Shown piece by piece: positions 2,554 through 61,712 of a stretch of 64,000 nt of DNA (position 1 is the stretch's first letter; each line of letters starts with the position of its first letter). The stretch covers positions 20,336,001 to 20,400,000 of the forward strand of contig OZ024761.1 of the NCBI GenBank assembly GCA_964016885.1. The letters run 5' to 3'. The notes below the pieces were generated by a model that saw nothing but the letters and a program-made list of their open reading frames with translations, was not told where the DNA came from and searched no databases. Both the position numbers and the translations under genes were made by a program. Source of the stretch: Eledone cirrhosa. Taxonomy: Eukaryota.

Positions 2554-2833
2554 AAAATATATAAACAGACAAAGACTGGAAAACACATGTATACACAATC
2601 TACAGGTGTTGCAGAACAAGTTGGCAGGCTGTAAGACAGGTAGACAAGGTAATCAGATAAAGAGGTAGGTAGGTAGGTAGGTAGGTAGGTAGGTAGGTAG
2701 GTAGGCAGTTAGGCAAGTGTGCCAAGTCAAACCCATTACTAGAGTAAACTCTTACCAGGCATTATTCTTTTCCTGTTCTACGAAACATTTACGTAAAGGC
2801 AAAAGAAATGTTTCTAGAGTTTAAGAGAGAGAA

Positions 2834-2902
<69 letters not shown>

Positions 2903-3208
2903 GATATATATGATATCAAAAACAAAAACAATACTGACTTGCCTTGCTTCAGTCTAGAAAAATATCAATAGATTATCAATGAAATATCGATTAAAATATT
3001 ATCTAATAGCGAGGAAGCTTGTCTGAATATCATCTTACCGAAGCTACGTAGATGCTGAGTTATAGTAAAGACAGAATCAATCATGGCTACTTTATTTAGA
3101 CATTCCATTATTGAAAGATGTCGTCTGCTTTAAACAAACGTACGTGATGGCAGTAATGGCTGAAGCTATACCTCTTCCGATATATATATATATATGTATA
3201 TATATACG

Positions 3209-3239
<31 letters not shown>

Positions 3240-3249
3240 ATATATATAC

Positions 3250-3320
<71 letters not shown>

Positions 3321-3353
3321 CATATATATGTATATATATATATATATATATAC

Positions 3354-3424
<71 letters not shown>

Positions 3425-3538
3425 TATATATATATGTATATATATATATGTATATATATATGTATGTGTGTATGCGTATATATATTTAAAGAGAGGGACT
3501 TAGAAGACGTATAATATGAAAACATTGTTTGTTTGAGA

Positions 3539-3573
<35 letters not shown>

Positions 3574-4869
3574 TGTGTGTGTGTGTGTGTGTGTGTGTGA
3601 ATGTGTGTGTGTATGTGGTGATGTGCATATGTATTTATATATATCACATGTGTGTGTCATCTATGTGTGATCAAATGCGACCTAAACAGACCTGCTTTTA
3701 CTCAAGGAATTGTTTTTCCTTTCTGGCGCTGCTCACTCTCCTCTTTCTTTCTTCTCCAAGGGGTAGCGTCTGGTAGTTTATTGAGCGACCCCGGGAAGGC
3801 CTAGAATTGCTTGGTACTTTATTTTAGAACGGACTGTAGCTATGTGAAATAAGGTGTCTTGCTCAAGTACACAGTGGACTGGAGCTATGCGAAATAAAGT
3901 ATCTTGCCCCCGCACCAACACATACTAACACCAACACACACACACACGGGCCAGTACACACACACCAACACACATACATACACACACCAACACACACACA
4001 CACGCCAATACATACACACACCAACACATACACACACGCACCAACACACACACACACACCAACACACACACACACGCACCAACACACACACACACGCACC
4101 AACACACACACACAAACCAACACACACCAACACACACACACCAACACACACAAACCAACACACACCAACACACGCCAACACCAACACAAACAAGTTTGTA
4201 GCCAGTTAATAAATTTTAACAATTATAAAAGACCACACTTCTGCTTTTCTAAAATTCATTTTCTTCCTCCTAATAATAAACATTTCTTTTACAATATCTT
4301 CACGTTATAATCTGTAGAATATTGATGTAGAAATGTCTTTTGACGAATATATTTTTTTATGTCTAAGCTACATTCAGACTCCGTGTGATGTATTCACGAG
4401 AAATCAAAATATTTCAGCCAGACATTGAACAGAATTAATTTAGAAGACATAAAATGGTAAAAAATATTTTCTTGGTCTCTGTGATATATTTTTTTAAAAT
4501 TTCTTTAATGTATTACAAAAAAAAAAAAAAAGCTTGCAAAGAAACAAAATATAAATTACGTATCGTTTGCAAGACACGAATTGAATATATTTATTTTTTT
4601 AGCCTACTCTCAAACATCGTGGGATACGAGGTATCAGCTGAGAAGTTCATGGGCTAACTATAAAGAAGTGATGCTAGAGCTGTGAAATATTGCATGTATT
4701 AATTTCAAATTCTTCTTATTAATAATAACTGCAATGTTTCTTTCCATGGGATTATGTAGAAAAATAAACCTCATTTGGTCATTCCATGAGAGTACTTTGG
4801 GAAAAGTCAGACTATGAAGGAGTGATGCTAGAGCTGTGAAGTATTTCATGCATTAATTTCAAACTTCAA

Positions 4870-16685: not shown

Positions 16686-18464
16686 ATGGCCGAAGCTTCT
16701 TCACCAAAATTCGAAGGAGGAAAGGGGAAGATGAACTTACAGCTTCCCCCTGCCACTGTCACAGTAGCAGAGGTCAAGAAGAAAGGTCAGCCAGAGGAAG
16801 AATTCTCTCCACCTGTTAACCGACAACTTGACGTTGCCATGGTAACAACTCAAAGAACCAGCGGCAACAGCAACAACAACAATGCGACGGACGAAAACAA
16901 CACCAATAACAATAACAACAACAAGACCAATAACGGTGACAACAACAACAATGATAACAACAACACCACCAACGACAACAACAACACAAACAAACAAAAT
17001 TTCTCCTTCGCCGAGACGACAAGGAAAACCCTCGACTATCTGCCAGTAGATATAACAAAAGCGAAGGAGCTACTGGCGGATGCGAAAAAATATATAGTGT
17101 ACGGGGAAAATGGTTCATTCACAATCCATTCCCCCCCGGAACTAAAAAGCCAGAGACTCCTAAACACGGTCATGTTTAGGACAATCTCGAACAAAAGTAA
17201 AAAACCAGCTCAACCATCACAGAGCGAGATAGAGCTGGTTTTAAAAGACGTCATGAAGGACATCACCTTCATTCAGAAGGATAGACTCTACGGGAGTCTA
17301 TCCATTCTCATGAAGGACAGGGACACAGCAGTGAAACTGTCCATCAAACCAATCACATCCACCGCATACACCTTCTACCCTACGTACATGGGTAGAAGAA
17401 CACAAAAAATAAAAATCCACACCATCCTGCCGATTATGGACATATGGTGGGTTTTGACAGGTTTTCTGGACCTGGAGGATGACATGCTGGTGTCCATGGG
17501 AAAGGCATCGGGTGACGCGTTCAGTGGAACGAGCCTCGAACTTGTAGTTCAAATGAGGCCCGAAAGGATCGCCCAGATCCCTGAACGCGTCATACTGGAT
17601 GATCTAACCTTCATCAACATTACCGTTGAGGGTAGACGGCCCTCGTGTTACCTCTGCGGAACCAGAGGTCACCTGAGGGCTGTCTGTCCCCAACTTAATA
17701 AGAAAACCCCAATCCTGCCTACACCACCAACAGCTGCACAACCAACACAATCACCACAACTACCACTACAAAAACAACCACCACAGCTCAAACCAAAACA
17801 AAACAATGTCCAACCCATCCCCTCCACTCAAAAAACAAAAACAATTTCCAAAACACCCGTACCGCAAACACAACCCGAAAATATACCCCTCCCCTCCAAC
17901 GCGGAAGATGACCCTAGTTCGTCGTCAGACGAGGAGGAGCACTTCCACACAATCAAAAGAAAAAAAAGAAAACACACCTCAGACACACAAATGAAAAAAA
18001 ACCCTCCCCAAAACATAACACTGACACCAACACAAAAGAGCTCACAACAGCAAACAAAAAACACCACACAAAAACAAAAACATGCATACACATACATAAA
18101 TACAAGAAACAAAAAACTGTTAAACATTGTGTACAACAACAATCTAATAAAAACACAAGGGCCTAACTTCACCCAGGCAGGGGATTTCCCCCACCTCAAA
18201 ATGATTAAGGCCCCACAGGACACCTATAAAACTTTAAAAAACAATTTTAAAGAGGACGTGGGTCCCCCCTGCGTCGGGCCCATTAACCGCGTCCTCCTAA
18301 AAAACTATCCCACCCCCTCCCCAAACACCCACACAACTCCAAGCTCCCCAACCACACAACACACTGATGCCCCCACACTTCCACAAACCACCACCCCACC
18401 CAACAACCCATCCCCCACCCTAATGGAAATTGTGCAGCCCGATACCCGGGACGCAGAGAGGTAA
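16686..18464 (+). CDS. LINE ORF1 (gag-like, CCHC zinc knuckle)
   Basis: 592 aa; CYLCGTRGHLRAVC knuckle, poly-Asn tract, Pro/Gln-rich region and basic KRKKRK patch. Confidence 0.88.
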   Translation: MAEASSPKFEGGKGKMNLQLPPATVTVAEVKKKGQPEEEFSPPVNRQLDVAMVTTQRTSGNSNNNNATDENNTNNNNNNKTNNGDNNNNDNNNTTNDNNNTNKQNFSFAETTRKTLDYLPVDITKAKELLADAKKYIVYGENGSFTIHSPPELKSQRLLNTVMFRTISNKSKKPAQPSQSEIELVLKDVMKDITFIQKDRLYGSLSILMKDRDTAVKLSIKPITSTAYTFYPTYMGRRTQKIKIHTILPIMDIWWVLTGFLDLEDDMLVSMGKASGDAFSGTSLELVVQMRPERIAQIPERVILDDLTFINITVEGRRPSCYLCGTRGHLRAVCPQLNKKTPILPTPPTAAQPTQSPQLPLQKQPPQLKPKQNNVQPIPSTQKTKTISKTPVPQTQPENIPLPSNAEDDPSSSSDEEEHFHTIKRKKRKHTSDTQMKKNPPQNITLTPTQKSSQQQTKNTTQKQKHAYTYINTRNKKLLNIVYNNNLIKTQGPNFTQAGDFPHLKMIKAPQDTYKTLKNNFKEDVGPPCVGPINRVLLKNYPTPSPNTHTTPSSPTTQHTDAPTLPQTTTPPNNPSPTLMEIVQPDTRDAER

Positions 18465-18488
18465 GTGCCTTTTCTCTTCACCACCAAC

Positions 18489-21400
18489 ATGGCTATGCTA
18501 AGAGTAGGCTGTTTAAACGCGCGTGGCCTGGGCTCAACTTGGAAGCAAGCAATGCTTCTAAATGACCTCAGGTCACAACGTATAGATGTGATGGTTATTT
18601 GCGAGGCCCGGATCAGCAACGTGCGACAGCTGGCCCCCACCTTTGATGACTTTGAGATGCACGCATCTCTCTGTCAGCCCGGAGGTGGGGGTGGAGTTGT
18701 CGTTCTGCTGCAAAAACATCTGGGTCTCGCAACACAGATGGTACATTTGGACCCGGAGGGTCGACTAGTGGTTCTGGACCTTGGCAGTGGTAAAGGCGGA
18801 GCGTTTAGGTTGGTAGCCGCCTACGGCCCTTTCGGGTCAATGCGGCCGGACTTCTTCCATCGTCTGGAGACTTTTCTAGGGACGTCCCGCTCCTTGCTAT
18901 TAGTGGGGGACTGGAATGGTATCCTAGATGCACGCTGGGACTACGTAGGGGCCTGCCCCGATAGAGAGGGGTGTAATAGCCTCAAAGGGTTAATCGGTCG
19001 ATTTGACCTGGCCGATAGATATCGACTAGATTTTCCGACTGCGCCAACCTGGACTTGGGCAAATCGTAGCGGATCATCTAGGTCGTACCTAGATAGGTTC
19101 TTAGTTAGAATTAAGGATAAGGACTTTTTAAGTTGTCCAAAAATGCGCATTGTTGGCTATTCAGACCACAAATTAGTGACCTGCATGGTCAACCTTGACA
19201 GAACTCATAGACAGGGCCCCGGTTACTGGAAGCTCAACTTGTCCTTGCCGGCAAGTAGAGCCTACAGGAATCGGATTAGTACGTTAGTTAAGGAACGGTT
19301 GACTGGAGCGATCGTCAACAGCAGGTGGTGGGTATCTCTAAAGAGAGAGATTAGAGTAGTCTCGATAGAATTTAGTAAGGTTCTAGCTGCGGATAGGAAT
19401 AGGAAGGAAAGGGAGCTAATAGATAGAGTAGAAGAGGCAATTAGAAGCGGCGACGTGGCCAGAGTGCTAGCGTCGAGAACGGCTTTGAGCCAGTTTTTCG
19501 ACGCGAAGCACGAAGGCTGCGTTGTCCGAAGTAAAATACGTGCTCTAGGGAACGAGGGGACCAAAGCTGTTAGCTGGGCCCGCGTGACAGAGGCCAACAG
19601 TGGAACTAAATCCACCATCCGGTCTTTGCGAGACCTGGATGGACGGGCGATTCTTGAGCCTAAGCAGATGTGTGAGGCCTTTCAAAGGCACTTTGCCCGA
19701 CTGTTCGGGAGGGGCGGGGAGCCGGTTGGGAACGTGGACTTCGGTCCATACCTCGACGGCCTGCCGCGCCTCTCGGACAGGGAGGCGAAGTCCTGCGAAG
19801 AGCCGATTTCGGCCGCTGAGATAGAGGACGTGCTGAGCCAATGCGGCAAACGCAAATCCCCGGGTCTCGATGGTCTTCCTTACGAATTATATCTAGCTAT
19901 GCCGGACTTGTTCCCCGATCTCCTCGAGGCGGTCTACTGCAACTGGCAACAGAACGGGAGAATTCCCTGTACTGTGACCAAGGGCGTAGTCACGCTAGTG
20001 AGGAAGGACGAGAACAAGGGGGACGAAATAAGTAACTTCAGGCCCATAACACTGCTAAATACAGAGTTACAGATTTTGGCCAAGGTGCTAGCAAAGAGGT
20101 TGGCGCTTGTCGTGGGCAACCTGGTGGGAGATGCGCAGACATGCGCTATCCCGTCCAGGTCCATCCATGACAACCTCCACCTCATGCGATACATCATAGA
20201 GAGGGTTGGGAACGAACCCGGCTTTGGTGGGGCTCTGATCAACTTGGATCAATCTAAGGCGTTCGATAGGGTCGACCATGGTTACCTGGATGCGGTGCTA
20301 GCGGCGGCAGGCTTCGGACCCGTTTTCAGGGGCTGGATCACTGCTATGCACAGCAGCCGCATCTGCTCTAGGGTCAAGGTGAACGGCTACCTCTCGGAGC
20401 CGTTCAAAATCGCGCGGTCCATCCGACAAGGGTGCCCTCTCTCCTCCCTTCTGTATGTGTTGACTCTCGAGCCACTACTGCGGAAGTTGGAGTTGTTGCA
20501 GGGCATCCCTTTGGAACCGGGATTGCGGAAAGCGGTGTCGGCCTACGCCGATGACGTGACAGTAATGGTGTCGACGGCCTCCGAAATCGAGGCGGTCGGC
20601 ACCTTACTGGAGGAGTACGAAAAGTTCACAGGGGCTAAGCTGAACCGGGACAAGTCGATCGGTTTGCAACTCGGCACGTGGAGGGGCAGACCGATGCCCT
20701 CCGATAGCGTCGTCGGACGCTGGACGGAGGGCCCGGTGAAGTTGCTCGGGGTCTGGTTCGGACCGGACCTCCAGGTGGAGAAAAACTGGGCGGAGGTTAC
20801 GAACAGGGTGTTTGCACTGACCCAGAAGTGGGCCAGTTGCAAACTATCCCTGAAAGGCCGGGCGGAGGTGGCGAACACCTACATAGCGTCCGTCATCTAC
20901 TACCGCCTGACCGTAGTGCCCTGCCCAAGGGAAACCCTCACCAAGATGGAGCGCGCGCTCTTCCAATTCCTTTGGAAGAGGCGGGCTCCTATGGTGAGGA
21001 GATCCATCTGCTGTCAACACCCTTCGAAAGGAGGGCTGGGGATGCCGTGGCTAATGATGCGTAAACACGCATTAAGGCTACGGCACCTCTACGTATTCCT
21101 CACCGGACAACCGGTGTGGGCCTCGTTTGTGAGACGAACCTTTCCCAGACTCGTCTCACTCACCGAGCTGCAATCCTGGGTCAAGCAAAGACCGAGAAAA
21201 CTGGGCGCCTGGCACACTGAGTGTGCCCAGGCGCTCACCGCCCTCTGGCAGGCGGATCCGGTTATCAGTGGAGACTCCACCGCAACATTCTATAGAGGGC
21301 TAGTACGCAGCAGGTGCGACGACGCCCTCGGAGAAGCCCTAGACATGGAGGAGGACGAACTGGCCAGCCTGTTCGGTAGGACATTCAGCCCGGGACCTAT

Positions 21401-21926
21401 GGACAACTTCCAGAAGTCCCTGGCCTGGCAGTGCTACCGAGGGGCTTTACCCGTTCGAGAAAGGCTCTACAGACACGGGCGCCCGGGTAGGGACCCCGCC
21501 AAAAAGATCTGTCCCAGATGCGTGTGCGACGAGGAAACCGTTGCACACGCATTAGTACACTGCTCGGGCGTAGCCGATCTGTGGGGCTATGTCGAACAAC
21601 TGCTGTCAAGGGTGGGACCGATCCGGTTGACCACCGAGTCTATTGTAATGATCAAGCCGCCTCCCCCCTTCAAAGATGAAGCAGAGGCGGTGTTTCTGTG
21701 CGTAATAGCCATGGCGAAAGAGGTTGTATGGTGGACGCGTCTGAAAGGACTGAGGTCGGGCACCTTTCTCTCTGGCCAACAACTGGTCCGTTTCTTCCGA
21801 TATCATTTCGGAAGAAGGATCAGGATGGAGAGAGAGGTGCTGCACCCCAGCCGTTTCTATGAAAGATGGGTGAAAGTGGCGAGAATGGCCCGTGTGAATG
21901 GGCCTTCACTCTACATCAGACTATAG
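18489..21926 (+). CDS. LINE ORF2: AP endonuclease + reverse transcriptase + C-terminal CCHC
   Basis: LNARG, GDWN, YLDR and SDH (APE); PGLDG, FRPITLLN, KAFDRV, IRQGCPLS and AYADD (RT); CPRC..ETVAHALVHC. The frame is open from 18465 and the first ATG is at 18489. Confidence 0.97.
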   Translation: MAMLRVGCLNARGLGSTWKQAMLLNDLRSQRIDVMVICEARISNVRQLAPTFDDFEMHASLCQPGGGGGVVVLLQKHLGLATQMVHLDPEGRLVVLDLGSGKGGAFRLVAAYGPFGSMRPDFFHRLETFLGTSRSLLLVGDWNGILDARWDYVGACPDREGCNSLKGLIGRFDLADRYRLDFPTAPTWTWANRSGSSRSYLDRFLVRIKDKDFLSCPKMRIVGYSDHKLVTCMVNLDRTHRQGPGYWKLNLSLPASRAYRNRISTLVKERLTGAIVNSRWWVSLKREIRVVSIEFSKVLAADRNRKERELIDRVEEAIRSGDVARVLASRTALSQFFDAKHEGCVVRSKIRALGNEGTKAVSWARVTEANSGTKSTIRSLRDLDGRAILEPKQMCEAFQRHFARLFGRGGEPVGNVDFGPYLDGLPRLSDREAKSCEEPISAAEIEDVLSQCGKRKSPGLDGLPYELYLAMPDLFPDLLEAVYCNWQQNGRIPCTVTKGVVTLVRKDENKGDEISNFRPITLLNTELQILAKVLAKRLALVVGNLVGDAQTCAIPSRSIHDNLHLMRYIIERVGNEPGFGGALINLDQSKAFDRVDHGYLDAVLAAAGFGPVFRGWITAMHSSRICSRVKVNGYLSEPFKIARSIRQGCPLSSLLYVLTLEPLLRKLELLQGIPLEPGLRKAVSAYADDVTVMVSTASEIEAVGTLLEEYEKFTGAKLNRDKSIGLQLGTWRGRPMPSDSVVGRWTEGPVKLLGVWFGPDLQVEKNWAEVTNRVFALTQKWASCKLSLKGRAEVANTYIASVIYYRLTVVPCPRETLTKMERALFQFLWKRRAPMVRRSICCQHPSKGGLGMPWLMMRKHALRLRHLYVFLTGQPVWASFVRRTFPRLVSLTELQSWVKQRPRKLGAWHTECAQALTALWQADPVISGDSTATFYRGLVRSRCDDALGEALDMEEDELASLFGRTFSPGPMDNFQKSLAWQCYRGALPVRERLYRHGRPGRDPAKKICPRCVCDEETVAHALVHCSGVADLWGYVEQLLSRVGPIRLTTESIVMIKPPPPFKDEAEAVFLCVIAMAKEVVWWTRLKGLRSGTFLSGQQLVRFFRYHFGRRIRMEREVLHPSRFYERWVKVARMARVNGPSLYIRL

Positions 21927-22645: not shown

Positions 22646-22695
<50 letters not shown>

Positions 22696-22747
22696 TTTGT
22701 ATACACACACACACACACACACACACGCACATATATATATATATATG

Positions 22748-22858
<111 letters not shown>

Positions 22859-22902
22859 ATGTATATATATATATTTATATGTATATATATATATATATAT
22901 GA

Positions 22903-23095
22903 AACAAGTAAGACCCCGACAGCTGAGCTCAAGCCGTTTCGACGGCTAATTCTGGACTCGTCCAGAATTAGCCGTCGAAACGGCTTGAGCTCAGCCGTCG
23001 GGGTCTTACTTGTTCCTATTACCCACTCTACTACTCTAAGTATTGAGTACTTTGGTGCGTTATGGTCCACCTGGTTCCTTACCACATTTCCTTCG

Positions 23096-23097
<2 letters not shown>
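22903..23097 (+). repeat. Palindromic dispersed element (half-hammerhead family), copy 1
   Basis: Near-perfect 112-bp palindrome at 22903-23014 plus a tail; homologous to 57972-58197 in the opposite orientation. Confidence 0.85.
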
Positions 23098-23142
<45 letters not shown>

Positions 23143-23147
<5 letters not shown>

Positions 23148-29744: not shown

Positions 29745-30284
29745 AGATGATGCATGACATACCCTGACATAGTAGATGGTTAAGATTCAGTCATGGTAGT
29801 GAGTGCTTCCAATCTATTGTAAAACTCATTTTTTGATTTATTCATTGAACCTTGTTTAACCTTTAAATATATATATATATATATATATAGCGTATATATA
29901 TAATCAACGAAATTGATGAAAGAGAAGCTAGCCGTTTAAACATATTTATAAGAACCTTTTACACATATTACGCCCTCAGAGGCTTACAAGAAAATAAAGG
30001 AATTAATAAAGAACCCTGAATGGGTGTGAGTAGGATTTTAACATCGAAATTCATACCTCAGTGTGACAAAGTTAAGTGTTTATGTTTGTGAACACTTAAC
30101 TTTGTATATATGTATGTATATGTGTATGTATGTATGTATATGTGTGTTTACATGTAAACTATTTTCACTGTCATTGTATTAGTCTCACTGTCTCTATTAT
30201 CAATAGGAAACAACAGCAACAACAACACTTTGATTCAATGTATATTTATTGGTGACATTCCTTTACACATAACAGTTTCAATAT

Positions 30285-30420
30285 ATTTTACAAGTTACTA
30301 TTGATCCAGTTCCAATATATCTTACTAGTTACTATTGATCCAGTTCCAATATATCTTACAAGTTACTATTGATCCAGTTCCAATATATCTTACAAGTTAC
30401 TATTGATCCAGTTTCTGAAA
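30285..30420 (-). repeat. 34-bp tandem repeat spanning the stop codon of copy A
   Basis: Unit AACTGGATCAATAGTAACTTGTAAGATATATTGG, 4 copies here and 5 in copy B (36662-36832). Confidence 0.9.
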
Positions 30421-32958
30421 TATCCGACATCACTGAAGGCACTGATTTCTCTATCACATTGGTTTCCGAATGAGGTAACTCCTGCTAACACCATTTGACC
30501 ATTTGAACTAGGACAGTAAAGTGGACCACCAGAATCACCCTGTAACAACAACAACAAACAATATACAAATATATGTAACTGAAATCAATAGACATTATAT
30601 AAACCTTGTTATATTTAGAGATTATTTCACACAAACAAGACTATCATCTCCGCAATATAATTTTCTTGGGCTACCTTTGGTGTTACAGCCCTCACTGAGC
30701 CCCAAACGGCCCTTTATACAGAACAAACACCTTCTAACACTGCAATAGAAACCTTTTATAAACTACTATGAAACATTCTTTTGCTAATCCGGTTGGTCAA
30801 AGTCATCACCATCCCCATCATCATCAGACCTAGTCAAGTTTTCTTTTCAGTTGGAACTCCCCTCTCACTTTCACACAGAGATATCTGGGAAGTAGATATC
30901 AGATAGATATCAATATAATTATATTATTATTAGTAGCGTTATATCAATATTAACATACCTGGCAAGTTGATGCTCCACCTTGTCTGAAATCTCCGGCACA
31001 AAGAATTCCCTCAGAAATTGTCATCCTGGAACTCCTCTGACATTGACTAAGAGGGACAGCTGGAAGGGCCACCTTGTATAGTTTGTTAGGGCTGTTTCCT
31101 TGGACTGAAAATTACACAACAGAATGGTGGTTAATCAATCAATGAGAGATGTATATATAGAGATTGAGGTATTAGGAACAATTGATGATGTTTTATAGAT
31201 ACTTACAGCTGAAGTCTCCCCACCCAGCAGCCATACATCTTCTTGTACCAAATGTTTCTCCTTGTCTGGCCATTGTTGCAAATTTGACGCATCTAGCTTG
31301 ACGGACTGGTTTGTCCAGGGTCAATATGGCAATGTCGTTCTCTTTAAAGGTAAAATATAAAATATATATGTCAGGCCTACATATATGTATAAATATTTAT
31401 ATATATATAAGTAAGGCATGCTTTGTATACATGCAAATTTATATATATACACATATATATATAATAATATTGAAAAACAGGAATAACTAAGCAAGAAGAA
31501 TGTAAGAAAATATATGAAGAAATCTTAAGAGTTATACTTACTAATGACATATTTAGTATGTATGTAATTACCATGTTTCAGAATTCGGCTTACCATTCTT
31601 GATTGGGGACCAAGATCCCATTTTTGGTTGGATCCAATATTTACTTTAACTTTTCTTACATTTCCTTCCCTAAAATCAAACACAATATATTACAGTATAG
31701 ATTATATTGATCTCAATAATTGACTGGTACATTATTTTATTGATCCTGATAAGATGAAAGACAAATTTCAACAGGGAACCTAAAGAACCAGAACAAATTC
31801 CACCATAGCATTTTATCTGGCACTCTATAAATGGTAGAATATTAAGATGTGATATCTGTTACATATATATGATATACTTACAGACAATGAGCTGCTGTTA
31901 ATACATGTGTAGCATCAATCAAAGTACCTCCACACATACCAATCATGTCATCAGTAGGTTGGTTAAATACTTGGAGGTGAACAATTGATGGAAATTCACA
32001 GTTTTGAGCTGGAGAGCCATCAACAATTTGGGTGTCAGGATCTGAAAGTAATTCACAAAAGTAAAATATTGTTTATTTGTAGATAAAATATTTGTTAGTG
32101 TCTATATTCAAATGATAGCATTAGATGGGAAATAATGTTTAACCCTTTAGCATTTAAACCAGCCGTATCTGGCTAGAATTCTCTTTCTGGTCAAACCGGC
32201 TGTAACTGACCACTCATACTGATATTAAGGTATTGTTCTCAAAATAAATAATATCAAAATCTCGTAGATTCGATATTATGTGAGGTAGAGCCTTTATTAT
32301 GAAAATACAATAGTATATATAGAGTAATGTAAATGTTATGTGAGATATTATGTGAGGTAAAGCCTTTACTGTGAAAATACAATAGTATATATAGAGTAAT
32401 GTAAATGTTATGTGAGATATTATGTGAGGTAAAGCCTTTACTGTGAAAATACAATAGTATATATAGAGTAATGTAAATGTTATGTGAGATATTATGTGAG
32501 GTAAAGCCTTTACTGTGAAAATACAATAGTATATATAGAGTAATGTAAATGTTATGTGAGATATTATGTGAGGTAAAGCCTTTACTGTGAAAATACAATA
32601 GTATATATAGAGTAATGTAAATGTTATGTGAGATATTATGTGAGGTAAAGCCTTTACTGTGAAAATACAATAGTATATATAGAGTAATGTAAATGTTATG
32701 TGAGATATTATGTGAGGTAAAGCCTTTACTGTGTAAATACAATAGTATATATAGAGTAATGTAAATGGTAACGGGTTAATTGAATCTAAATTATTTGATA
32801 AAATAATTTAGATAAAATCTACTTTATATAACATCAACTGTGATATATTGTGAAGAGCTGAAGTGATACAATTATTTGTTTATCGACAGAAGACATCAAC
32901 ATCACCTACCAGCAAAAGCTGAAGCAATCGTAAGAAGAAGGCAACACAGAGACAACAT
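30390..32958 (-). CDS. Secreted S1 serine protease, copy A (255 aa, 6 exons)
   Basis: Exons 32958-32910, 32041-31882, 31669-31542, 31341-31207, 31104-30959 and 30539-30390; all GT-AG and frame-consistent (768 nt). Signal MLSLCCLLLTIASAFA, DPDTQ|IVDG, TAAHC, NDIA, STCQGDSGGP. Confidence 0.93.
32143..32775. mobile_element. piggyBac-like MITE with an internal 72-bp tandem array (intron 1 of A)
   Basis: TTAA|CCCTTTAGCATTTA ... TAAATGGTAACGGG|TTAA, about 7 internal units. Copies at 34590-34933 (about 3 units) and 49449-49804 (about 3 units). Confidence 0.75.
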
Positions 32959-34168: not shown

Positions 34169-36686
34169 ATGTTGTCTCTGTGTTGCCTTCTTCTTACAAT
34201 TGCTTCAGCTTTTGCTGGTAGGTGATGTTGATGTCTTCTGTTGATAAACAAAGAATTATATATCAGAAATAGAAGCTTTCACCGTATTTTTTGACTATAG
34301 AAATTTTAACCTGATAGTGGGGTTTAGAACCCTCTAAGAAATGGAAAAAGATGAGTATTGACATTAATACTCATCTTTTTCCATTTCTTAGAGGGTTCTA
34401 AACCCCACTATCAGGTTAAAATTTCTTTAATAAAAAAAAATACAGTGAAAGCTTCTATTTCTAATTTCAAGCTCACTTGCTGTTTCAAAACAAAGAATTG
34501 TATCACTTCAGCTCTTCACAATATATCACAGTTGATGTTATATAAAGTAGATTTATAATAATTTTATCAAATAATTTAGATTAAATTAGTCCTTTACCAT
34601 TTACATTACTCTATATAAACTATTGTATTTTCACAGTAAAGGCTTTACCTCACATAATATCTCACATAACATTTACATTACTCTATATATACTATTGTAT
34701 TTACACAGTAAAGGCTTTACCTCACATAATATCTCACATAACATTTACATTACTCTATATATACTATTGTATTTTCATAATAAAGGCTTACCTCACATAA
34801 TATCGAATCTACGAGATTTTGATATTATTTATTTTGAGAACAATACCTTAATATCAGTATGAGTGGTCAGTTACAGCCGGTTTGACCAGAAAGAGAATTC
34901 TAGCCAGATATGGCTGGTTTAAATGCTAAAGGGTTAAACATTATTTCCCATCTAATGCTATCATTTGAATATAGACACTAACAAATATTTTATCTACAAA
35001 TAAACAATATTTTACTTTTGTGAATTACTTTCAGATCCTGACACCCAAATTGTTGATGGCTCTCCAGCTCAAAACTGTGAATTTCCATCAATTGTTCACC
35101 TCCAAGTATTTAACCAACCTACTGATGACATGATTGGTATGTGTGGAGGTACTTTGATTGATGCTACACATGTATTAACAGCAGCTCATTGTCTGTAAGT
35201 ATATCATATATATGTAACTGATATCACATCTTAATATTCTACCATTTATAGAGTGCCAGATAAAATGCTATGGCGGAATTTGTTCTGGTTCTTTAGGTTC
35301 CCTGTTGAAATTTGTCTTTCATCTTATCAGGATCAATAAAATAATGTACCAGTCAATTATTGAGATCAATATAATCTATACTGTAATATATTGTGTTTGA
35401 TTTTAGGGAAGGAAATGTAAGAAAAGTTAAAGTAAATATTGGATCCAACCAAAAATGGGATCTTGGTCCCCAATCAAGAATGGTAAGCCGAATTCTGAAA
35501 CATGGTAATTACATACATACTAAATATGTCATTAGTAAGTATAACTCTTAAGATTTCTTCATATATTTTCTTACATTCTTCTTGCTTAGTTATTCCTGTT
35601 TTTCAATATTATTATATATATATGTGTATATATATAAATTTGCATGTATACAAAGCATGCCTTACTTATGTATATATAAATATTTATACATATATGTAGG
35701 CCTGACATATATATTTTATATTTTACCTTTAAAGAGAACGACATTGCCATATTGACCCTGGACAAACCAGTCCGTCAAGCTAGATGCGTCAAATTTGCAA
35801 CAATGGCCAGACAAGGAGAAACATTTGGTACTAGAAGATGTATGGCTGCTGGGTGGGGAGACTTCAGCTGTAAGTATCTATAAAACATCATCAATTGTTC
35901 CTAATACCTCAATCTCTATATATACACCTCTGATTGATTGATTAACCACCATTCTGTTGTGTAATTTTCAGTCCAAGGAAACAGCCCTAACAAACTATAC
36001 AAGGTGGCCCTTCCAGCTGTCCCTCTTAGTCAATGTCAGAGGAGTTCCAGGATGACAATTTCTGAGGGAATTCTTTGTGCCGGAGATTTCAGACAAGGTG
36101 GAGCATCAACTTGCCAGGTATGTTAATATTGATATAACGCTACTAATAATAATATAATTATATTGATATCTATCTGATATCTACTTCCCAGATATCTCTG
36201 TGTGAAAGTGAGAGGGGAGTTCCAACTGAAAAGAAAACTTGACTAGGTCTGATGATGATGGGGATGGTGATGACTTTGACCAACCGGATTAGCAAAAGAA
36301 TGTTTCATAGTAGTTTATAAAAGGTTTCTATTGCAGTGTTAGAAGGTGTTTGTTCTGTATAAAGGGCCGTTTGGGGCTCAGTGAGGGCTGTAACACCAAA
36401 GGTAGCCCAAGAAAAATATATTGCGGAGATGATAGTCTTGTTTGTGTGAAATAATCTCTAAATATAACAAGGTTTATATAATGTCTATTGATTTCAGTTA
36501 CATATATTTGTATATTGTTTGTTGTTGTTGTTACAGGGTGATTCTGGTGGTCCACTTTACTGTCCTAGTTCAAATGGTCAAATGGTGTTAGCAGGAGTTA
36601 CCTCATTCGGAAACCAATGTGATAGAGAAATCAGTGCCTTCAGTGATGTCGGATATTTCAGAAACTGGATCAATAGTAACTTGTAA
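34169..36686 (+). CDS. Secreted S1 serine protease, copy B (255 aa; protein apparently identical to A)
   Basis: Exons 34169-34217, 35035-35194, 35407-35534, 35735-35869, 35972-36117 and 36537-36686. Catalytic His/Asp/Ser intact; AATAAA at 36860. Confidence 0.94.
34258..34499. mobile_element. Fold-back insertion in intron 1 of B
   Basis: Palindrome 34265-34462 with a perfect inner stem of about 60 bp. Absent from A. Flanked by a 12-bp direct repeat AAACAAAGAATT. Confidence 0.75.
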
Positions 36687-36889
36687 GATATATTGGAACT
36701 GGATCAATAGTAACTTGTAAGATATATTGGAACTGGATCAATAGTAACTAGTAAGATATATTGGAACTGGATCAATAGTAACTAGTAAGATATATTGGAA
36801 CTGGATCAATAGTCACTTGTAAGATATATTGAAACTGTTATGTGTAAAGGAATGTCGCCAATAAATATACATTGAATCGAAGTGTTGAT

Positions 36890-39142: not shown

Positions 39143-39213
39143 TATTTTATCTGATGAAAACGCAGATGTCATCTCATGATGATATTTGTTTTTGAAATGC
39201 GCATAATAAAATA
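39143..39213 (+). ncRNA. Minimal hammerhead ribozyme motif (stem III UGCGCA)
   Basis: TATTTTAT-CTGATGA-AAAcGCAGATGTCATC..GATGATATTTGTTTTT-GAAA-TGCGCA-TA-ATAAAATA. Confidence 0.8.
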
Positions 39214-41190: not shown

Positions 41191-42216
41191 TGAAATAAAA
41201 GAAACAACAAAACATATAATGGGCCTATAAGGTTATAACGAGAAGGTTGAACAGCTGGCTACTCTGTGTCAAATACTGGCGGCCCTCAAGAGGTTAATAA
41301 GGTTATATCGAGAAGATTGAACACCTGGCAACCCTGTGTCACATACTGGCAGGCCGCAAGAGATGAATAAGTTTATATCTAGGCGCCACAGAAAAAAAGC
41401 CCCCAGCACTCACTATAAATGAGGTTGGTGTCAGGAAGGGCATCCAGCTGTAGAAATCAAGCCAGAATCAGTTCCTGTATGAGCAAGACAAGGTCAGATG
41501 ACTGGACACTGCCCACAACAGGACAACCCGTCTAACCCATGCGAGCGTGGAAGAATGGGCGTAAAACGGTGATGATGGTCAAGAAGGTTGAACACCTGGC
41601 TACTGTGTGTCAAATACTTGTGGGCCTCAAAGGACACTTGTGACAACCACAAGACTAAAGTTGATGTCTTTACACGAAATAACAATAACCACAATTTCAA
41701 TAATTTATTTGATAGATTTATTAGTTTCTTAATACATCATAGATGATATTTTGTTAATATTTCTACATAAACAGAAAATGTTCAATAAAGTTCTTCTTAC
41801 AAGTGACTATAGATCCAATTTCTGAAATATCCAACATCAGTAAAGGCACTGATTTCCTTGGCACATTGGTTTCCGAATGAGGTTACTCCAGCTAACACCA
41901 TTTGACCATTTGAACTAGGACAGTAAAGTGGACCACCAGAATCACCCTGTAACAACAACAACAAACAATATACAACTATATGTAACTGAAATCAATAGAC
42001 ATTATATAAACCTTGTTATATTTAGAGACTATATCACATAAACAAGACAGTCATTCTATATCTATAAGACAGAAGGAATTTTTTTGTAAATTTAAATAAT
42101 TGTTTTTACAGAGAATTTGCTGACACTATGTATATTTTATATTAATGCCCCAACATGGCCTCAATCAGTCTGCAGGAACACGTGATAGGATAATAGAGAA
42201 ATAGTTATTTATTATT

Positions 42217-43335
42217 TCGTTTCTGAATTTGTTTAGCAAGATTCTTTATCTGAAATCGTGTGTTGAAACCGATATTGTTATACTTTGGGAGGGTCATGTT
42301 GCCAATAAGAAACACATGCACCAGTTGCTTTCACTTCAATTTATTATATATTTATAAATTTATAAATTTACAAATTTACAAACTTATAAATTTCTGGTTG
42401 GTTGGTTGGTTCCACAACCAGATAGTTGTTTATATATAGTCATAGTCCTTTCGTCACACACTCTGTGACCTCTTCAGTGACTGGGGATTCCTTTCTTTGT
42501 TTCTGTGCCTTTCCTTTCTTCTATCCTACGCCATTTTGTTTCTGTGTGTGTGTTGTGTGCTCAGTTTGCGCATGCGCCACATCCGGGTGTCTGTGTGTGT
42601 TTGTGTTCATTTATCTATTTGTTTATTTATTTATTTATTTATTTATTGTTGGTTGGTTGTTTGTTCTATGTGTGTGTGTGTTTTCATTTTGTCCTGTGTG
42701 TGCTTTCATTTTGTCCTTAATTGTAAGTTGTTTGTTTTATGTGTGTGTGTGTTTTCATTTTGTCCTGTGTGTGTTTTCATTCTGTCCTTAATTGTAAGTT
42801 GTGATGTTGCTGTTCCACTCATATTTTCTATTTAATTTTGGTTGTAATTCTTTTATGCTTACTGCCTCTGTAATTTGCCTAAACATTGCATCTTTTCTGT
42901 GTGTGGATTCTATTTTTATTTCTATGTTCTCTAATCTACCCCTGTGTTCTATCTTGGCATGTTGGTAGAGCACAGATGATTCTTTATTATCTTGGAGGTC
43001 TCGCCAGTGTTCATTTATTCGTTCCCCTATACTACGAGCTGTCTCACCTATGTACACTATATTTTTGTTTCTACATTGTCCTTCAGTACATCTTATGCTA
43101 TACACTACATTTCTAGTTTTACAGTTAATATGGGGGCTTATTTTACAGGTTATACATTTCTTATCTATACATGAGGGTCTTTGAAAAGGGGTATGTCTTG
43201 CTAATAAGTGTTTTTACGGAGGTACCTGGTCTTTCTACTATCTTAATATTGAGTTTATGTTTATTTAGGGCCCTTCTAAATGTGTAGGCTAGTTCGCCTC
43301 TAGGGGTTGTATTTATTATTCGCCTCTAGGGGTTG
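42217..43335 (-). mobile_element. 5'-truncated Penelope-like element (GIY-YIG) in intron 5 of copy C
   Basis: ORF 43105-42788 reads VYSIRC..VYIGETARSIGERINEH..EAVSIKELQPKLN. 11-bp TSD TATTTATTATT at 42206-42216 and 43336-43346. Empty site in copy D. Confidence 0.9.
42438..42482 (-). ncRNA. Hammerhead ribozyme in the Penelope 3' region
   Basis: AGTCA-CTGAAGA-gGTCAC..GTGAC-GAAA-GGAC-TA-TGACT, on the same strand as the GIY-YIG ORF. Confidence 0.8.
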
Positions 43336-57133: not shown

Positions 57134-59716
57134 GTAGGAGCCCCTGCATGGACACACTGGAGGAGGAAGACCGAGGTTAACATATGTTGATGTCCTAAGG
57201 AGAGACACTGGTCGCTTGGAGACACAGGACATGGCAGCAATAATGAGGGACAGAGACCGCTGGGGAGAACTCGTCCATGGATCTCGTGAATTTTACCTGT
57301 CCTAGATATATATATATATATACATATACATATTAAGAGTCTTAAAGTTTCAGACGCTAGTCCTTCATCAGAAGAAACAATGAGAAATTAAAGAAGATAG
57401 ATAGATAGATTGAAGTAATCAAGACAATTGTTGATGTTCTATTGATACTTACTTTCAAAATCTCCCCATCCAGCAGCCATACATCTTTTTCTATCAAAGT
57501 TTTCTCCTTCTTTGGCCATTGGTGCAAATTTGACGCATTTATTTTGTTGGACTGGTTTGTCCAGGGTCAACATGGCAATGTCTTTCTCTTTAAAGGTAAA
57601 ATATAAATGGAAAGTAATTATGTATATATATATCATCATCATCATCATTTTACGTCCGCTTTTCTCTGCTTGCAAGGGTGGGACGGGAACTGATTCTGGC
57701 TTGATTTCTACAGCTGGATGCCCTTCCTAACACCAACCTCATTTACAGTGAGTGCTGGGTGCTTTTTTGCCGTGGCACCTCCACGACCACTTTGCAGTGG
57801 AATGATAGGGACCCCAGTCCCTATCATCTCATTTTTACAGCTGAGTAAACTGGAGCAATGTGAAATAAAGTGTCTTGCTCAAGGAAACAACACATCACCT
57901 GGTCTGAGAATTGAACTCACAACCTTTCAATTGCAAGGCTCTAACAACTAAGCCATATATATATATATATAAAACGAAGGAGTTGTGGTAAGGAACCAGG
58001 TGGACCATAACGCACCAGAGTACTTGATACTTTGGGTAGTTGAGTGGGTAATAGGGAAAGAGTCAGGACCCCGACGGCTGAGCTCCGGCCGTTTCGACAG
58101 CTATTTCTGGACTAAATTAAATTGAATTTAATTTAGGTCAGAAATAGCTGTCAAAACAGCTTGAGCTCAGCCGTTGGGGTTCTGACTCTTTTCCTATGTA
58201 TATATATATATATAATCATCATCATCATCATCATCAAATATATATAGATGGATGTGTAATAGTAATGTGCGCGAAAGGCGAAGCATAAACAAACTAAGAG
58301 GGAAACTAAGCATAAGAGGTATCCAATGTTGTGTTCTGGAGAGGAGATTGCGTTGGTATGGACATGTGATGCGTATGAAGGACGACAGCTGTATAAAAAA
58401 GTGCAGGGTAATGAAAATTGATGGAAGCTGCGGAGTGGGTAGACCAAGAAAAACCTGGGCCGAGGTGATAAAAACTGACCTTGCCCACCTACACCTCTCT
58501 AACACAATGACACTGGATCGAGACCTTTGGCACCATGCAGTCGTACAGAAGACCCGACTACCATTGCACACAAACCTACAGGCAGTAGGCACCTCTTCAC
58601 TCAATGTACACCCCACCCCACACACCCTACCCCCTCCTTCCTCTCCCGTTCCGTCCACTGTGTCGATGACACAACAGTCCACACTGTAAGGTGGCCGTGT
58701 AGGAGACACAGTGAAAAGGCTCCCAGTCCACACTGTAAATGTGGTTGGTGTTAGGAAGGACATCCAGCTGTAGAAAACCTGCCAGATAGTCCTATATGAG
58801 TGAGACACAGTCACCCGATCAACCTTGCCTCAAGTGGGGCAACGTCCGTCTAACCCATGCTAGCGTGGAAGATAGACGTTAAATGATGATGGTGATGATG
58901 ATGATGATATCAAATGAATATATATATAATAAAGATATAATAATTGTGATACTTACTAATAACTCGTGCACCATCTACATAGCCACTATGTTTCACAATA
59001 GTGCTTACCATTCTTGACTGTTGACCAAAATTCCATTTAAGGTTGGAACCAACATTTACAGAAACCTTTCTTACATTTCCTTCCCTAAAATAAAATACAA
59101 TATATTAGAGGTTAGCTGGGAGATGTTGAGAGGATATTAAAGTGGTTGTCTTCTGACAAGATGAGACAATCATTATATATATATATATATATATAGAGAG
59201 AGATGGTGGATTGGCAGTATCGGTAGAGGGTCGGACACCATGCTTTCCAGCACAGTTACGTCCCTTTACGATCTGAGTTCAAATCCCGCCGAGGTTGACT
59301 TTGCCTTTATCCTTACGGGGTCGATAAAATAAAGTGCCAGTAATGCACTGGGTAATTGCTGAACTTGTGCCTAAAGTAGAAACAATTATGTCTATATATA
59401 TACGGTTTTTTTTTTAAAGTCTATATATTATATATACATATATCTTATATATATTATATATACATATATCTTATATATTGACAGTCGATTGACTTTCGTC
59501 AAATCAGACCGAGGAAACAATACTTCCATCGGTCTTTCCAATTGCTAATACTATCTATCGGTCACAACTACAGGTAGAAGGAGAAACATGAAATAAAGTG
59601 TCTTGCTCAAGGACACAACGTATCGCCCGGACCAGGAATCAAACTCACAATCTCACGATTGCGAATCCAATTCTCTAACAACTCAGCCACACGCCTTCAC
59701 ATGTGTATATGTATGT

Positions 59717-61389: not shown

Positions 61390-61712
61390 AATTATTGTGT
61401 AAAGTGCTCAGGTGCACTACAACTCGTCAATATAGTACATAGAATATGTATGTATACTCCATATTCTTCTGAGTTTTTGGCTTGTATTGGCCGATAGTGC
61501 TTCTTATAGCTTTACTTGCCCTGATGAGTCCTTAATAGGACGAAACATTGTTGGCTAATAAAGACTTTTGATGTATTGAAGGCTTCTTTGGTTTATTTTC
61601 ATAATTCTTCGGCTCTGTTTAATTACATTGAGCTATACCTTTACTGTCATTTCTATAATACGAAGAGGGTGTTTAACTCCAACACACTCTAGTATTTTAA
61701 TTCTTATATATT

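Follow-up and report, generated by a model that had tools for sequence, protein, structure and literature searches.

A palindromic repeat with half a hammerhead in Eledone cirrhosa as a probable twin-priming by-product of a Hydra-clade Penelope-like retroelement

The palindrome at 22903-23014 of the window (the 64,000-nt stretch of Eledone cirrhosa DNA analysed here, contig OZ024761.1, positions 20,336,001 to 20,400,000) probably consists of two head-to-head, 5'-truncated pLTR copies of a Hydra-clade Penelope-like retroelement (PLE) lying in (TA)n, which were likely twin-primed on one sense RNA and both copied to its 5' end. Taken by itself, the window element is an unremarkable dead by-product of a known element class and not a new ribozyme element. 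The family is young and intact, and its approximately 14,000 short junctions provide counts that separate twin priming from fold-back and two-RNA models. The exact sites +1, +42, +61 and +141 can be named, and the value of the family lies in this junction record for PLE integration and hammerhead function; PLE by-product palindromes can also be misfiled as MITEs. The origin of the PLE inverted repeat with its one-sided tail, and hammerhead cutting in vivo, are left open in the accessible text of PMC3846280, PMC8557442, PMC4209133 and PMC11167929. No report of these junction signatures was found in the literature searched, and subscription journals, Repbase entries or supplements may hold one.

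Structure of the window palindrome and of a second copy

Sequence inspection showed that 22903-23014 forms a palindrome of two 54-bp arms with one mismatch around a 4-nt centre, followed by a unique tail, which bears out the 112-bp palindrome of the original prediction. It is bordered by (TA)n on the left and right. The features, numbered on the pLTR of the parent element described below, were as follows:

22650..22900, no strand: left (TA)n-rich microsatellite target, read from the sequence; nearly all family copies are flanked likewise
22903..22958, - strand: short arm, parent pLTR +1 to +56, 98% identical to parent copy L107
22959..22959, - strand: one additional junction base, G on the - strand before +1, absent from the parent
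22960..23099, + strand: long arm, parent pLTR +2 to +141 (putative priming site 2), 96% identity over 143 columns
22970..23004, + strand: hammerhead 3' half, with stem II 3' strand, GAAA, stem III, GUC and stem I' GGGGU
23020..23099, + strand: 80-nt "tail" between the two putative priming sites, on one arm only
23098..23145, no strand: right (TA)n target, with TAT microhomology to putative priming site 2
57973..58197, - strand: second insertion, of an older subfamily; tail arm 58113-57973 (87% to parent), site-1 arm 58139-58197

The last 5 bases of the window short arm are altered, and family members extend to +61 (putative priming site 1). The tail named at the outset was real but differently bounded: the left arm has lost its last 5 bases, and the proper tail is the stretch of about 80 nt at 23020-23099, which continues in the parent into the 5' UTR. 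The extra base at 22959 was likely copied from an RNA cap. In the hammerhead half, GAAA lies at 22977-22980, GUC at 22997-22999 and GGGGU at 23000-23004, and the predicted ribozyme cut in this copy falls at 22999/23000. Since the parent has the matching 5' half, the claimed 3' half, stem III included, is a genuine half of a hammerhead. The window copy itself starts at +1/+2, downstream of the core, and has no 5' core box in cis, while the "stem-II-like hairpin" and upstream GACCCC that had been described are merely the mirror image of the right arm. An Rfam scan of the window returned 0 families at threshold. The diverged copy noted earlier was found to have the same build (77% identity to the window copy over 208 columns), and each of its arms extends about 10 bases upstream of +1.

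Parent element

Using the second copy as query, we recovered longer non-palindromic copies and walked upstream to reverse transcriptase (RT) and nuclease coding sequence. These longer copies continue upstream of the right arm into the stem I strand and the hammerhead core. The protein search revealed a parent of 3,531-bp tandem units with an open 784-codon frame, one of many such frames in a young family, and its pLTR matched window 22960-23097 at 96%. The parent has the features of EN+ PLEs, namely a single ORF with RT and C-terminal GIY-YIG motifs, tandem pLTRs, an inverted 5'-truncated copy and a tail at one end. Since Pfam searches (parent and 37 aligned proteins) and PDB profile searches did not recognise the parent protein, the RT/GIY-YIG assignment rests on motifs. 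Its 2,049 homologues are nearly all unnamed.

According to the part of PMC8557442 available to us, the Hydra clade is defined by DKT, CxCX5C, CxxC and CxH, RWK, and (TA)n targeting. The parent protein contains DKT, GLYRDDGL, CxCX5C (CNCPDRSIC), VIY...YIG, CxxC (CNLC) and CxH (CKH), targets (TA)n, and has RWR where the Hydra clade has RWK. By eye, it matches the Hydra alignment in the supplement of PMC8557442, as far as that was available, motif for motif. On these motifs, read by eye, we place the parent in the Hydra clade. Neptune was also considered as the clade and dropped; the motifs fit Hydra.

Locus L082 contains, between (TA)n borders, a 198-bp inverted arm without tail and a 2.3-kb 5'-truncated, RT-containing body ending in the tail, which is the window architecture at larger scale. 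Inverted copies were seen in L081, L082, L085 and L113-L118. Coverage of the parent pLTR was highest from about +1 to +141 in X1 and X4 of four contig sets; depth is not copy number, X1 is possibly the source sample, and coverage was not counted as support.

Hammerhead of the parent

The parent pLTR is predicted to fold as a complete type I hammerhead with a U3-A8 core, in the order stem I (5 bp), UUGAGAA, G10.1, stem II, a loop of about 35 nt, GAAA, a 5-bp stem III, GUC and stem I'. The type I features, that is the core boxes, G10.1-C11.1, three stems and an NUH site, are all present. U3-A8 cores are known from PLE hammerheads, as described in the part of PMC4209133 available. In the unconstrained fold, the three-way junction appeared in 2 of 4 parent variants (L107 and L153); folding z-scores were unremarkable in 3 of 4 parents. 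Across 19 variants, 92% of cells were paired. Structural support is modest, because 26 of 500 shuffles reached the covariation score; two-sided changes are seen in three pairs, each of them in stem II. With a helix III of 5 bp and a self-complementary loop, the RNA is predicted to fold as a monomer.

The core pattern detected 3,066 parent hammerhead cores in the genome. Among the first 100 of these listed, TTGAGAA was the commonest, followed by TTGAAAA, CTGAGAA, TTGATAA, TTGAAGA, CTGAAAA and one TTGAGGA, while CTGANGA occurred in 0; some cores have C3-A8 or U3-G8 mismatches. CTGANGA as such gave 27 matches in the genome, and the 20 of these that were inspected were variable centre fillers or junctions with other elements. 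The expectation of intact relatives was thus right as to hammerhead-complete copies and wrong as to their GACCCC-CUGANGA form, the cores being mostly of the UUGANAA type.

Size and variety of the genomic family

One exact pattern across the centre detected 13,869 short-centre palindromes in the 3.0-Gb genome, compared with a control count of 0, so the palindrome is not a product of chance. A genome search with the window element yielded at least 40 scored full-length copies at 93-100% identity, and 718 candidates. Exact-match patterns favour young copies, and the patterns used differ in stringency.

Forty-seven junction classes were present among 51 palindromes. The identical junction recurs across haplotypes and with the tail on either side, and the common short haplotypes each have long read-through parents. 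These classes, shared haplotypes and read-through parents together indicate that the palindrome formed anew at most insertions; it had been proposed instead that the form propagated or arose twice. The same build was seen with arms from about 20 bp up to kilobases.

Arm ends, pairing and haplotypes

To define the arm ends, 94 arms were measured in genome order from the start of contig C1; of the first 100 rows listed, 70 called for further sequence, which was taken as 40 stretches with three places left out. The samples in this work are the first-listed rows of contigs C1-C3 and not random draws. The first 30 loci, biased to the query's own centre, were excluded from junction counts; for pairing and junction counts, 10 overlapping loci were removed as duplicates, the tandem duplicate L146 was kept, and arms of the older subfamily are under-extended. 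Of the 3' ends, 47 lay at +61, 35 at +141 to +147 and 12 elsewhere, and the +61 and +141 sites each share TAT with the (TA)n target. The 5' ends fell between -7 and +8 in 77 arms (mode +1/+2), at -12 in one and far upstream in 16, with none of the 94 from -13 to -37. Some ends at -1 to -4 are oligo-T fillers.

One tail arm (+141) was joined to one site-1 arm (+61) in 51 of 54 short palindromes, three being unclassified; tail/tail or site-1/site-1 palindromes numbered 0 of 54. The two arms shared a four-site haplotype in 48 of 54 palindromes, compared with 16.0 ± 2.8 in 20,000 shuffles. The tail arm reached further 5' in 19 of 51, the site-1 arm in 26 (as it also does in the window copy), and the reach was equal in 6. 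Microhomology of 1-2 nt was found at 14 of 51 junctions. A later deletion at a palindrome centre looks the same as trimming at insertion.

The 5' boundaries at +1 and +42

Position +1 is the A of an initiator-like TTAGTC inside hammerhead loop II. In arms starting there, the preceding base was G in 56, C in 36 and A in 8 of the first 100 rows listed (hand count; T was excluded by the pattern, and many loci appear on both strands), whereas in 46 read-through copies the parent base at -1 was T in 39, C in 7 and G in 0. Some of the C before +1 (36/100) comes from a parent variant, and some from reading the same inserted pair on the opposite strand. Often both arms carry the extra G, separated by 0-1 nt. 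When a cap is reverse-transcribed, an untemplated G is the expected remnant, and here it stands at an initiator-like TYAGT. From these junctions we place the putative transcript start inside loop II, 231 nt ahead of the first ATG. Only the substrate half would survive because such a capped start leaves GAAA, stem III and GUC and not the core. The +1 position also reads as a splice acceptor (TTTAG/TTCAG), and the transcript may instead have a very short first exon. An internal initiator (Inr) promoter has been described for Penelope in the available part of PMC2377424.

The second boundary, +42, is the first base after GUC. Tail arms starting at +42/+43 made up about 5 of the first 100 rows listed. 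A pattern count detected 327 palindromes with both arms near the predicted cut. By hand count of the first 50, both arms were at +42 in 34 (23 with non-parent filler, often one A, and 11 blunt), 8 were at +42/+43 and 8 extended past the cut, though the pattern allowed 12 more bases; the 11 blunt joins could equally be +41/+41 joins through CG microhomology. All 9 loci of this class that were inspected lie in (TA)n and join a site-1 arm to a tail arm; three haplotypes are represented. Mixed loci, with one arm near +1 and the other at +41/+42, numbered 17 among the first 100 of 342 listed, or about 60 in total, whereas some 2,700-3,900 are calculated if the arms came from independent RNAs; about 275 loci had both arms at +42/+43. 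Since mixed loci are this rare, the 5' end appears to be a property of the RNA shared by both arms. The pile-up at +42 likely records self-cleavage in the animal; for the cleavage, as for the start site and the cap, the source is DNA junctions. Stalling of the RT at stem III was judged an unlikely cause of the +42 class, given that independent stalls would make mixed loci the majority.

Models for the formation of the palindrome

Among the alternatives to twin priming, the one deserving most attention is fold-back, in which a single cDNA begun at the tail end reaches the end of the RNA, folds back on itself and is extended as far as +61, or self-primes on an antisense template, as was proposed for rotifer Penelope elements in the part of PMC3846280 available. 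Besides this precedent, fold-back accounts for the shared haplotype (48/54) and the coupling of both arms at +42, and is consistent with the microhomology at 14 of 51 junctions. Nevertheless, we consider it unlikely: in 26 of 51 palindromes it is the site-1 arm that lies further 5', as it does in the window copy, the extra G often stands on both arms with 0-1 nt between, and foreign sequence of 200-300 bp lies between the arms in L055 and L063. Moreover, the +1 and +42 boundaries are features of the sense RNA, and no tail/tail palindrome was present among 54. An origin from two RNA molecules of one source locus, with each subunit priming once on its own RNA, would explain the arm overlap without strand displacement, and the haplotype concordance if one locus dominates per cell; the strict use of one site of each kind is then left unexplained, and the coupling of cut-site ends (about 275 both-arm loci against about 60 mixed, with thousands expected) makes this origin improbable.

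A non-autonomous unit of SINE or MITE type, in which the 195-bp palindrome is mobilised in one piece by transcription or excision and its centre decays later, fits the fixed ends, the high copy number and the recurrent centres among the best query matches; sequence downstream of the inferred start is kept in each arm, and some copies could be transcribed. Against it stand the 47 junction classes in 51 loci, identical junctions in different haplotypes with the tail on either side, long parents for every common short haplotype and arm lengths continuous to kilobases, and we give such a unit very little weight. Unlike in a MITE, the inversion is sub-terminal, the ends are not mutual inverted repeats, the tail is one-sided and the centres vary; target duplications are unreadable within (TA)n. 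An ordinary MITE with a transposase, which had been named as the finding that would overturn the original prediction, was not what we found, the partner being a reverse transcriptase, with no linked transposase. In that prediction, quasi-palindrome correction had replaced the CUGANGA strand of an intact hammerhead element, and the parent hammerhead is indeed itself a partial inverted repeat (stems I and II). However, what the left arm repeats is 56-61 bases of the right arm and not a 7-base core, nothing upstream of +1 is kept (parent stem I, core, loop II and 3' UTR), and the element begins in (TA)n at the putative priming site. The left arm is an inverted, 5'-truncated second Penelope pLTR copy, and the structure of the parent refutes the correction model, which we regard as hardly credible.

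Proposed mechanism of twin priming

The following twin-priming scheme combines what was established above: the parent, its predicted hammerhead fold, the fixed 3' ends, the one-of-each pairing, the shared haplotype and the two sharp 5' boundaries. Transcription would start at the initiator-like A in loop II, giving a capped RNA that begins with the substrate half only, and a GIY-YIG/RT dimer would cut (TA)n. TAT microhomology would let the two target 3' ends prime, one at +61 and one at +141. Both cDNAs would then be extended to the 5' end of the RNA, which would be either capped (+1) or cleaved (+42), with strand displacement for the second cDNA. The cDNAs may gain a cap-derived C or an untemplated A before their ends are joined by end-joining with slight trimming, microhomology or filler. 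Priming at the cap-near sites would yield the 195-bp by-product. On a read-through tandem RNA, use of the downstream pLTR would yield the long copies with the whole hammerhead, and priming on ribozyme-cut RNA the class with 20-bp arms stopping at +42.

With somewhat less confidence than for the window element, we lean towards a broader reading, in which twin priming at two fixed positions of a single RNA is how PLEs integrate, and the insertions in this genome are its fossil record: thousands of them would mark the capped start within the hammerhead and hundreds the cut. The PLE hammerhead would then cleave in the germ line, the cleaved RNA would still serve as template, and the cut would part the coding RNA from the priming sites, limiting full-length copies. 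Two in vitro results of Frangieh 2024 count against twin priming, as given in the available part of PMC11167929: no priming-site difference between the two strands, and, for the Poseidon element, no RNA reads ending at the cut site. In other respects the scheme agrees with the in vitro behaviour of that element, PAc.

Other elements in the window and genome

A different Penelope-like fragment lies at window 42435-43213 (-), with a GIY-YIG frame (Pfam PF01541, E 5.5e-5) followed at 42477 by a minimal type I hammerhead with a CTGAAGA core; in L035, a fusion point within stem II links the core of this fragment's family with the 3' half from the studied family. A hammerhead-like motif at 61510-61575 (+) has a CTGATGA core, a 5-bp stem II and GAAAC (fold z -2.45), and was not recovered by the stricter stem I test. 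A repeat family with CTGATGA...TGAAA, found at 39151 (+), 29301 (-), 15397, 51501 (+), 29736 and 51896 (-), resembles Hydra-type hammerhead ends, and two copies pass the type I test.

The window also contains an apparently young LINE at 16686-21926 (+), with open frames of 592 and 1153 codons and AP endonuclease and RT motifs by eye, and a 2-kb inverted duplication (30273-32287 and 34789-36803, 99% alike). An exon in this duplication has what we take to be a trypsin-like TAAHC motif, with a presumed GDSGGP exon near 41930. Arms of 532 bp at 44986-45517 and 45579-46110, 98% complementary around a 61-nt spacer, are outside the studied family and have no long frame.

Elsewhere in the genome, L034, L046 and L047 are unrelated short palindromic repeats with CTGATGA-like cores, which suggests the same by-product from other PLE families. 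Different Penelope-like RT/GIY-YIG types occur near studied copies (L081 3916-5881; L086 3724-5774). Foreign or distant sequence is caught between or beside the arms in L055, L063, L237, L220 and L232, as in template capture at the junction. In L244 (G000:C1:27008000-27010600), an inverted arm is followed by three 257-bp units in head-to-tail order that start near +1, pass the ATG and return, which may reflect template jumping or a circular, retrozyme-like template.

Comparison with known systems

In L1 twin priming, both target strands prime on one RNA and an inversion results, with a variable second site and pieces that barely overlap. The two-strand priming proposed here is the same, but neither site varies and the overlap of the pieces is complete, which makes a palindrome.

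The Hydra clade, as described in the available part of PMC8557442, shares with the parent a C-terminal GIY-YIG-type domain, DKT, the CxCX5C linker, CxxC, CxH, (TA)n targeting and a hammerhead in the pLTR. The inverted 5'-truncated copy with a tail is given there as a PLE trait, and such a copy is noted for Penelope-13_HM. The unit here is 3.5 kb, whereas most of those listed are below 3 kb, and the tail is 80 nt instead of 30-40. All 26 of the 26 hammerheads listed have a CTGANGA core and a short loop II, in contrast to U3-A8, a loop II of about 35 nt and a 9-nt loop III here; the octopus family Hydra-1_Obim likewise has a different hammerhead from the studied family (PMC8557442). The minimal PLE hammerheads of Schistosoma (Cervera and De la Pena 2014, PMC4209133, seen in part) share the U3-A8 core, the 5-bp helix I, a long helix II with an unpaired base near its start, and occurrence as pairs on opposite strands; they differ from the hammerhead here in its 5-bp helix III with a self-complementary loop and in the putative transcription start inside loop II.

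Non-LTR retrozymes (bioRxiv 10.64898/2026.07.22.740005, seen in part) are also short non-coding PLE-derived repeats tied to type I hammerheads. They are head-to-tail tandems with whole ribozymes, whereas the window build is head-to-head with half a ribozyme and falls outside that group. Poseidon PAc of Anolis (Frangieh et al. 2024, PMC11167929, in the part available) shares two internal priming sites bounding the tail, an AT-rich target, cutting and extension of both strands, and a predicted dimer. Priming there is neither target-homologous nor strand-specific and no RNA ends at the cut site are reported, whereas here both sites share TAT with the target, one of each is used per insertion, and an insertion class lies at the predicted cut.
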